64,000 bases of DNA from Shigella phage sb4, in sequence record PQ666542; one strand, given 5' to 3'. Every line of letters starts with the position of its first letter. The stretch's first letter is position 1. Below the pieces are notes generated by a model. That model was not told where the DNA came from. It worked only from the letters and a program-made list of their open reading frames with translations, and did not search any database. A program made the position numbers and the translations under genes. Shown piece by piece: positions 37,741-38,397 of the stretch.

Positions 37741-37746
37741 TTGATT

Positions 37747-38397
37747 ATGGGGCTTCGGCCCCTATTCTCGAGGAAACAAGTGATTATTTCTAAGTTTGTT
37801 AAAGTGAAAATTGTACCATCAAATTTTAAACATTATCAATCAAAGGGTTATAAATTAACACCTCTTGGAGCGGTTAAACATGGATTTAGGTATTATGAAA
37901 TTGATGTTAAAGTTGAAGACATTAAAGGTAGTACCGCGTATGTAAAATGCCGTTGCGATAAATGTGGAATTGAATATAACCAACGCATTGGAAGAAACAC
38001 TGATATTTGTCGTGATTGCCGTCATAAAGATAAAATGCGCAATAATTCATATGGTTCCGCGAATAAAGGAAAAACAGTAGAATGTATGCATGGCGTAAAT
38101 CATCCAAGATGGAACCCAAATAAATCTGAAATGCGTGAATATATTTCATTGGTATATAAAGAAACTCGTAAGCATAAGAAAATTTGGTCAAAATGGCCAA
38201 ATGCTGATAAAATAGGAGTGTGCGGTACAAAAGGTGCTTACCAACTTGATCATAAGGTATCTATCAAATACGGTTTTGATAATTTAATTCCTGCTGAAAT
38301 AATTGGCGGTATTAATAATTTAGAAATAATCACTTGGGAATCTAACCGAGAAAAGTCAAAAAGAAATAGTGTAGATCTTTGGGATTTACTAGAATGA
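37747..38397 (+). CDS. Free-standing HNH homing endonuclease between genes 18 and 19
   Basis: Cys cluster CRCDKCG...CRDCRH and HNH core LDHKVSIKYG...NNLEIITWESNREK; not in this position in T4; start could also be GTG 37780. Confidence 0.6.
   Translation: MGLRPLFSRKQVIISKFVKVKIVPSNFKHYQSKGYKLTPLGAVKHGFRYYEIDVKVEDIKGSTAYVKCRCDKCGIEYNQRIGRNTDICRDCRHKDKMRNNSYGSANKGKTVECMHGVNHPRWNPNKSEMREYISLVYKETRKHKKIWSKWPNADKIGVCGTKGAYQLDHKVSIKYGFDNLIPAEIIGGINNLEIITWESNREKSKRNSVDLWDLLE
37749..37762 (+). terminator. Hairpin after gene 18 (GGGGC-TTCG-GCCCC)
   Basis: Perfect stem with UUCG tetraloop; overlaps first codons of the HNH ORF. Confidence 0.4.

Follow-up and report, generated by a model that had tools for sequence, protein, structure and literature searches.

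A probable free-standing HNH-type homing endonuclease gene at the tail sheath–tail tube junction in T4-like phages

A 657-bp insert at the gene 18/19 junction

We examined a gene that lies between the tail sheath gene (gene 18) and the tail tube gene (gene 19) in a segment of the T4-like (Tequatrovirus) genome of Shigella phage sb4 (PQ666542); the window, in what follows, is the whole stretch of 64,000 nt, and positions are counted from its first letter. Alignment of the window with T4 and T6 across this junction showed that 657 bp, exactly the extent of an open reading frame (ORF) called mechanically at 37741–38397 on the plus strand, stand where the T4 spacer has the 9 bp TACGGTGCA. In T4 the gene 18 stop codon TAA is followed by TACGGTGCA and TTCTAAAGGCC..., and in the same alignment the spacer downstream of TACGGTGCA continues TTCTAAAGGCCTG...; the 18/19 region as a whole measures 1701 bp when occupied and 1053 bp when empty. 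We argue below that the insert is probably a free-standing homing endonuclease gene of the HNH type, with the 3' end of gene 18 as its target. The locus contains the following features:

37741–38397 (+): the 657-bp insert, coextensive with the mechanical ORF (alignment of window, T4 and T6)
37749–37762 (+): insert-borne hairpin GGGGC-UUCG-GCCCC, directly 3' of the gene 18 stop and absent from T4
37770–37773 (+): Shine-Dalgarno sequence GAGG, with a 6-nt spacer before the probable start codon GTG at 37780–37782
37780–38397 (+): probable coding sequence, 205 residues plus a TGA stop, a ~50% identical homologue of T6 'gp19.1'
38405–38422 (+): original T4-type gene 18 terminator hairpin, GGCCTGTTTCGGCAGGCC, now downstream of the insert and identical in T4, T6 and the window
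38424–38431 (+): late promoter TATAAATA, downstream of the insert, identical in T4, T6 and the window
38483–38490 (+): second late promoter TATAAATA, before gene 19
33897–35729: gene 17, terminase
35761–37740: gene 18, tail sheath, with its stop codon TAA at 37738–37740
38505–38996: gene 19, tail tube
from ~39068: gene 20, portal

Read from its TTG start, the ORF encodes 218 residues, close to the roughly 215 given for it in a first-pass annotation of this stretch. Homologues begin MIISK, and the start is annotated at the equivalent of the GTG at 37780 in the records of T6, RB3 and Sf22 (in the last with the remark 'alternate start codon GTG'); the true start is probably this GTG, and the protein would therefore have 205 residues rather than 218 and would not overlap the hairpin that follows gene 18. 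The first-pass annotation had placed the first codons over the gene 18 terminator hairpin, which does not hold: the hairpin at 37749–37762 belongs to the insert and the GTG lies beyond it, and the terminator of T4 is found past the far end of the insert, where phage SA20RB also has both this terminator and the promoter next to it annotated as such. With these two corrections, to the start codon and to the origin of the hairpin, the observation of a gene at this position that T4 lacks is confirmed.

The ORF is a real gene and not a chance reading frame. When 50,697 phage records were searched by tblastn (E<=1e-5), it matched 237 places in 236 records, with one match per genome, at the sheath-gene site wherever this was checked, and with the frame near full length and intact in 232 of the 236. 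The match to PHROG 5104, a family of 'unknown function', has E=3e-91; homologues form 37 clusters in a protein collection at 90% identity, all of them unnamed or 'hypothetical', and a profile built from 29 members matched 6145 representative clusters at E<=1e-3 (1349 at E<=1e-10) among 1.84 billion proteins. Labels in the records are mostly hypothetical, with a few automatic calls of 'homing endonuclease', 'HNH endonuclease' or 'type II restriction endonuclease', and the VR7 and phiC600P9 records name the homologue 'T6 gp19.1'. Within the window the family profile matched only the ORF itself, giving no paralogue, and a literature search for this gene or for 'gp19.1' returned nothing specific, including no report of cleavage or homing by any member. 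One record under another name also turned up: MG010123.1, a 32-kb 'Staphylococcus phage SAJK-IND', is 98% identical to the T4-like 18/19 region, insert included, and is probably a misattributed or contaminant sequence.

Occupancy, alleles and genomic positions

The 18/19 junction was compared across T4-like genomes, as the first-pass annotation had proposed. A query spanning the junction matched 499 Tequatrovirus records, 117 of them (~23%) occupied and ~380 empty, the empty ones including T4, T2, RB51, RB55 and AR1. The insert replaces the 9 bp with base-precise boundaries in genomes that are otherwise 95–99% identical. It comes in two forms: allele A, the window type, was found in 47 records (RB3, RB5-10, HY03, pSs-1 and others), and allele B in ~70 (T6, PST, PP01 and ECML-134). 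Sliding identity between the window and T6 inserts singled out one divergent segment:

37801–38179 (+): variable N-terminal and central module, the putative DNA-binding part, with ~45% DNA identity to the T6-type allele

By the same measure the first 60 bp of the insert are 100% identical in the two alleles, and the last 220 bp, which hold the whole of the H-N-N core described below, are ~90–100% identical. Such similar ends around so divergent a middle show that the N-terminal, putatively DNA-binding, module has been exchanged between the alleles, and T6 is, as judged from sequence, a carrier of a mosaic allele with a different N-terminal module.

We also compared the identity of the ORF product with that of gp18 and gp19 in nine phages, and found the divergence of the ORF to be uncoupled from that of its neighbours. 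Between T6 and the window gp19 is 98% identical and the ORF product 50%; for Thanatos-2 the values are 64% (gp18), 70% (gp19) and 63% (ORF), and for Bp7 they are 72%, 73% and 34%, so that the history of the gene is incongruent with that of its flanks. At the same time, its position is strict. Every full-length homologue examined follows the sheath gene directly, as in VR7, Klebsiella phage RCIP0032, Shewanella phage Thanatos-2, Sinorhizobium phage phiM7, Bp7, CHI14 and Acinetobacter phage Melin, and likewise in metagenomic contigs whose sheath proteins have 570, 669 and 1307 residues and in two IMG/VR contigs (the IMG/VR scan yielded 11 loci, too few for statistics). More distant relatives share the nuclease domain alone and carry other zinc fingers; three of these have the major capsid gene gp23 as their immediate upstream neighbour, and another type is found between the portal (gp20) and RNase H genes.

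Other endonuclease-like genes were seen at neighbouring junctions in relatives (loci L008:3769-4350, which is Bp7, L016:4385-4966 and L021:440-1054). An ORF of 193 residues lies between genes 19 and 20; it is called HNH in the Bp7 annotation, and its sole Pfam match is a weak one to SegE GIY-YIG. Another ORF, which contains NUMOD3, immediately precedes the sheath gene. The 17-18-19-20 block looks like a hotspot for genes of this kind.

A zinc ribbon and a C-terminal nuclease domain

Residues are numbered on the protein of 205 residues, and conservation was read from family alignments of 29 and 148 members and from a motif scan over 184. The coding sequence can be divided as follows:

37954–38019 (+): zinc ribbon CxxC-x14-CxxC (C59, C62, C77, C80), upstream of the nuclease domain
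38077–38394 (+): C-terminal nuclease domain, residues 100–205, including a GxxHPRWNP motif and a long helix
38248–38355 (+): H-N-N catalytic core; D157-H158 closes beta-1, N180-L181 precedes beta-2, and the helix carries N189 and K192

The four-cysteine zinc-binding cluster noted in the first-pass annotation is borne out, C59, C62 and C77 being invariant and C80 conserved except for a His in three sequences. The Pfam family DUF4379 ('probable treble clef zinc finger') is matched by 8–10 family members (best E=7e-6), and a profile search of the PDB matches the ribbon to mS66 zinc-ribbon proteins.

The HNH core that the first-pass annotation had also described holds as a motif and as a predicted fold, though Pfam and NCBIfam give no HNH match on this protein (see below). 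The ORF contains an HNH-like motif, QLDH...NL...WxxNRxK, whose residues D157, H158, N180, L181, N189 and K192 do not vary among the 29 sequences and show at least 90% conservation among the 148. The pattern [DEN]H-x15-35-N[LIVMF]-x5-9-[NH]xx[KR] occurs in 180 of the 184 members, the four exceptions being truncated matches; the last position is Asn in all members, so the motif is an H-N-N variant. The uniformity of H-N-N in ~180 relatives and the near-invariance of its residues indicate, at the level of sequence comparison, purifying selection on the active site. AlphaFold2 modelled the full-length protein with a predicted local distance difference test score (pLDDT) of 83, and the C-terminal domain alone with a pLDDT of 88 and a predicted template modelling score of 0.76. 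Both models show the beta-beta-alpha arrangement, in which H158 closes one strand, N180 precedes a second and N189 belongs to the helix after it: D157-H158 ends strand E154-158, N180-L181 leads into strand 181–185, and N189 falls in helix 186–191. The closest structures to the C-terminal domain are the HNH enzymes Gme (PDB 4h9d) and GVE2 (PDB 5h0o), over ~70 aligned residues; the full-length model had no meaningful match in the PDB by Foldseek, and at the sequence level phmmer and hmmsearch runs against the PDB, whether started from the single sequence, from the full profile or from that of the C-terminal part, gave zinc-finger look-alikes or nothing. Among the 148 relatives Pfam returned sub-threshold matches to HNH_4 in three (best 3.5e-4) and to HNH in one (0.003), and NUMOD3, a module typical of homing endonucleases, in two.

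From the motif, the predicted fold and the sub-threshold matches in relatives, we conclude that the C-terminal half is probably an H-N-N member of the HNH (beta-beta-alpha-metal) superfamily, lying outside current curated profiles. The best explanation of sequence and model is a two-part protein, with an exchangeable N-terminal zinc-ribbon module that putatively binds DNA and a C-terminal HNH-superfamily domain. Separately, a group of longer relatives of 316–451 residues (P0167, P0123, P0117, P0141 and P0174) has the same C-terminal nuclease domain fused to Pfam DUF7487, a family without assigned function (E down to 3e-50), which hints that DUF7487 may be a DNA-binding or accessory module of nucleases.

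A hypervariable patch at the 3' end of gene 18

The flanks of the insert were compared in an alignment of 17 Tequatrovirus genomes, of which 7 were empty, 6 carried allele A and 4 carried allele B. One segment stood out:

37653–37692 (+): hypervariable, almost wholly synonymous patch near the gene 18 stop, encoding PARSINYITLNFV, 49–88 nt upstream of the insert

The patch holds 17 variable sites in 40 nt, nearly all synonymous, with a summed diversity of 8.14 compared with 4.47 in the next most diverse segment of the alignment, and none of 2000 permutations that preserved codon position reached its diversity. By contrast, hardly any variation is seen in the 48 nt that separate the patch from the insert or in the first 100 nt beyond the insert. 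There are three main haplotypes of the patch. Counted by matches of >=95% identity to the final 121 nt of gene 18, 250 of ~500 records carry haplotype 1 (T4 type), 117 haplotype 2 (RB3 or window type) and 89 haplotype 3 (T6 type). Haplotype 1 was found in only 4 of the 117 occupied records, namely sb1-3 and Ec_YwIITB1, which are closely related isolates, and in the aligned sample allele A went with haplotype 2 in five of six genomes and allele B with haplotype 3 in four of four. Sites more than ~100 nt upstream showed no such association. A single apparent fixed difference proved to be an alignment artefact inside the insert and was discarded.

The patch is a candidate recognition, cleavage or co-conversion region. 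Its pattern would fit co-conversion from a cleavage site in or near it, and would also fit substitutions that make the target site 'immune'.

Expression signals

On the plus strand the late-promoter octamer TATAAATA is absent between 35725 and 38424, and hence from the insert; the nearest copy upstream is at 35725, before gene 18, and the simplest expectation is that the ORF is probably transcribed late, by read-through from gene 18. In addition, patch haplotypes 2 and 3 create TATAAATT inside gene 18, ~80 nt upstream of the ORF, a near-consensus sequence one base off the T4 late-promoter consensus, where haplotype 1 has CATTAACT. That TATAAATT might act as a promoter driving expression of the ORF is speculation from sequence.

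Sequestration of the ribosome binding site has been reported for mobE. In the present case the insert-borne UUCG hairpin is stable by itself and forms in the minimum-free-energy fold, but the 71-nt region around it is no more stable than shuffled sequence (z = -0.72), so we make no claim that it sequesters the ribosome site, and this idea was dropped. Elsewhere in the window, at 49477–49496 (+), the late-promoter octamer TATAAATA occurs in three overlapping tandem copies (TATAAATATAAATATAAATA).

Interpretation and rival explanations

Free-standing homing endonuclease genes of T4-like phages have a recognisable signature, with one nuclease domain, variable DNA-binding modules, a place beside conserved essential genes, a patchy distribution and an incongruent history (PMC2988022, PMC10448857). 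The pattern of the ORF is that signature. We consider it probable that the insert is a free-standing gene of this type with its target at the 3' end of gene 18, because it is a precise optional insert, because of its active-site motif and fold class, its constant place behind sheath genes, its incongruent phylogeny and the module swap in T6, and because a patch haplotype is linked to it. The central proposal of the first-pass annotation, an optional free-standing homing-endonuclease-type nuclease gene between 18 and 19, is thus supported by comparative evidence. The element is of a familiar kind, and the protein is an uncharacterised new member of it.

Several observations pull the other way. 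An HNH or AP2-like domain was looked for on this protein in Pfam and NCBIfam, and neither was found, just weak zinc-ribbon noise; the first-pass annotation had itself said that a profile search without HNH would speak against it, and taken literally that is the outcome. Among the 17 aligned genomes, no nucleotide of the flanks is fixed for one base when the site is occupied and for another when it is empty. Haplotypes 2 and 3 are also present in many empty genomes, and the database records are related and redundant, so the association of patch and insert could be ordinary linkage among related, redundantly sampled isolates. The strict position after the sheath gene would also fit an accessory gene that is not selfish. 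PADLOC, finally, returned no match for this protein to any known defence family, a result that bears no less on the alternative considered next.

An accessory nuclease or DNA-binding protein of the sheath/tube block, ancestral here but lost repeatedly, as in T4 and T2, might serve late in infection in attack on host or competitor DNA, in superinfection exclusion or in regulation. It would account well for a gene whose full-length homologues, as far as examined, all keep this place behind the sheath gene, those of very distant phages included, that is intact and near full length in almost all of the phage records with a match, and whose catalytic residues are strongly conserved. It would not readily account for a divergence uncoupled from the flanking genes, for base-precise boundaries with some 23% of Tequatrovirus records occupied, for two mosaic alleles at one site, or for the same nuclease domain adjoining other conserved genes, gp23 and gp20, in company with other zinc fingers; together with the lack of any known defence family, this makes such a gene an unlikely explanation. 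There is a smaller chance still that the protein is a catalytically dead remnant kept as a DNA-binding protein or a passenger, as some phage homing endonuclease genes are defunct (T4 I-TevIII, for example; PMC2988022). An Asn in place of His as the last metal ligand, and the absence of a curated HNH match, would be expected of such a remnant, but H-N-N is uniform in ~180 relatives, with near-invariant residues, and H-N-N variants include active enzymes such as I-HmuI.

The closest structures and the place of the gene within the 17-18-19-20 packaging and tail block bring to mind a further role, that of a terminase-associated HNH packaging helper like HK97 gp74 or the GVE2 HNH protein, since both Gme and GVE2 are HNH nicking enzymes. 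However, most close relatives, T4 and T2 included, have no such gene and therefore package their DNA without it; gene 18 stands between the ORF and the terminase gene 17; phiM7 and the metagenomic contigs place the ORF after the sheath gene and not after the terminase gene; and distant relatives follow gp23. Because most close relatives lack the gene, and because it keeps to the sheath gene and not the terminase gene, this role appears extremely unlikely.

Comparison with known systems

T4 has five mob genes, and the likeness of the insert to MobE and the other Mob genes lies in its being free-standing, in an intergenic spacer beside a conserved essential gene, optional among close relatives and endowed with an HNH-type active site, with an expected action at some distance from the insertion point and co-conversion of flanking markers. 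The differences are that the nuclease domain is C-terminal and of the H-N-N form here, that the zinc ribbon is treble-clef-like, and that the site, 18/19, is another one. No similarity to Mob proteins was detectable by tblastn, with the T4 18/19 junction free of a homologue and no direct alignment with Mob made. Gme HNH and GVE2 HNH are small phage or bacterial nicking enzymes with a beta-beta-alpha-metal core, lacking the N-terminal zinc-ribbon module; the GVE2 enzyme is terminase-associated, and neither is known as a mobile element. I-HmuI and I-TevIII resemble the protein in being modular, with a nuclease and small exchangeable DNA-binding modules (NUMOD, zinc fingers); NUMOD3 is found in some relatives of the present family, and I-HmuI shares the H-N-N form. 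Those two are intron-encoded with an N-terminal nuclease, whereas this gene is free-standing with a C-terminal one.

Hef and F-CphI are likewise non-canonical free-standing homing endonucleases of T4-like phages beside conserved genes. Hef of phage U5 belongs to the EDxHD or Vsr-like family (PMC3239194), and Hef-like genes have been reported beside the tail tube gene in phage LIMEstone1 (PMC3296691); F-CphI belongs to the family with the DHHRN or Endo VII motif (PMC6083498). Identity with Hef was rejected, since neither the sequence nor the consensus of its family contains the EDxHD motif, as was identity with F-CphI or Endo VII, where the sequence reads LDHKVS without the second His and Pfam Endonuclease_7 is not matched.

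A possible mechanism

If the insert is a homing endonuclease gene, its late transcripts would probably start at the promoter of gene 18 (35725) and read through, possibly also at TATAAATT in occupied haplotypes, and would be translated from the GTG at 37780. In a mixed infection with an empty-spacer phage the enzyme would nick or cut the conserved 3' end of the sheath gene, at a site predicted to lie in or near 37653–37692, and recombinational repair off the occupied genome would transfer to the recipient the gene together with the ~90 nt of gene 18 next to it. The silent differences in the patch might then either protect carriers or simply mark the co-converted tract.

A broader proposal can be put forward tentatively, as a possibility that we would not yet favour: that one uncurated H-N-N lineage has tracked the C-terminal coding region of the sheath gene across distant phages, leaving the module swap and the silent patch as footprints of an arms race. 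It would span genera of Straboviridae, Emdodecavirus and unclassified metagenomic myoviruses with sheaths of 570 to 1307 residues, and the footprints would be the swapped zinc-finger module (RB3 versus T6 type) and the 40-nt silent patch, with endonuclease recognition set against target-site escape within one genus.

When a cell is infected by more than one T4-like phage, free-standing homing endonucleases influence which alleles survive; tested examples include the T4 Seg proteins, MobE, SegH and Hef. The present gene occurs in the laboratory phages T6, RB3 and RB5-10 and is absent from T4 and T2, which makes classic mixed-infection crosses applicable to it; the predicted target region lies inside an essential, highly conserved structural gene, and two natural alleles with different putative DNA-binding modules are linked to different target haplotypes. 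If true, the proposal would give a functional label to PHROG 5104 and to thousands of metagenomic relatives that are mostly called 'hypothetical'; no concept would be changed.

Private substitutions in the window

The window differs from its relatives at some positions, two of them next to the insert. Its gene 18 carries a private non-synonymous change at 37674 (...NYITF, where 16 of 16 other genomes compared have ...NYITL), and its gene 19 another at 38511 (MFIDD at the start, where 16 of 16 have MFVDD). Frames of the length of essential structural genes contain in-frame stops at 19480–19485, 20661, 21792, 26064, 28645 and 45247; the genes affected include 6 (TAA TAA at 19480–19485), 7 (TAA at 20661 and 21792), 10, 12 (TAG at 28645), 13 and 24. 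The nearest database relative over 19330–19780 is only 96% identical, without gaps, and the window therefore seems to carry private substitutions, perhaps because of noise in the sequencing, a stock with multiple mutations or deliberate perturbation. The ORF under study is intact.
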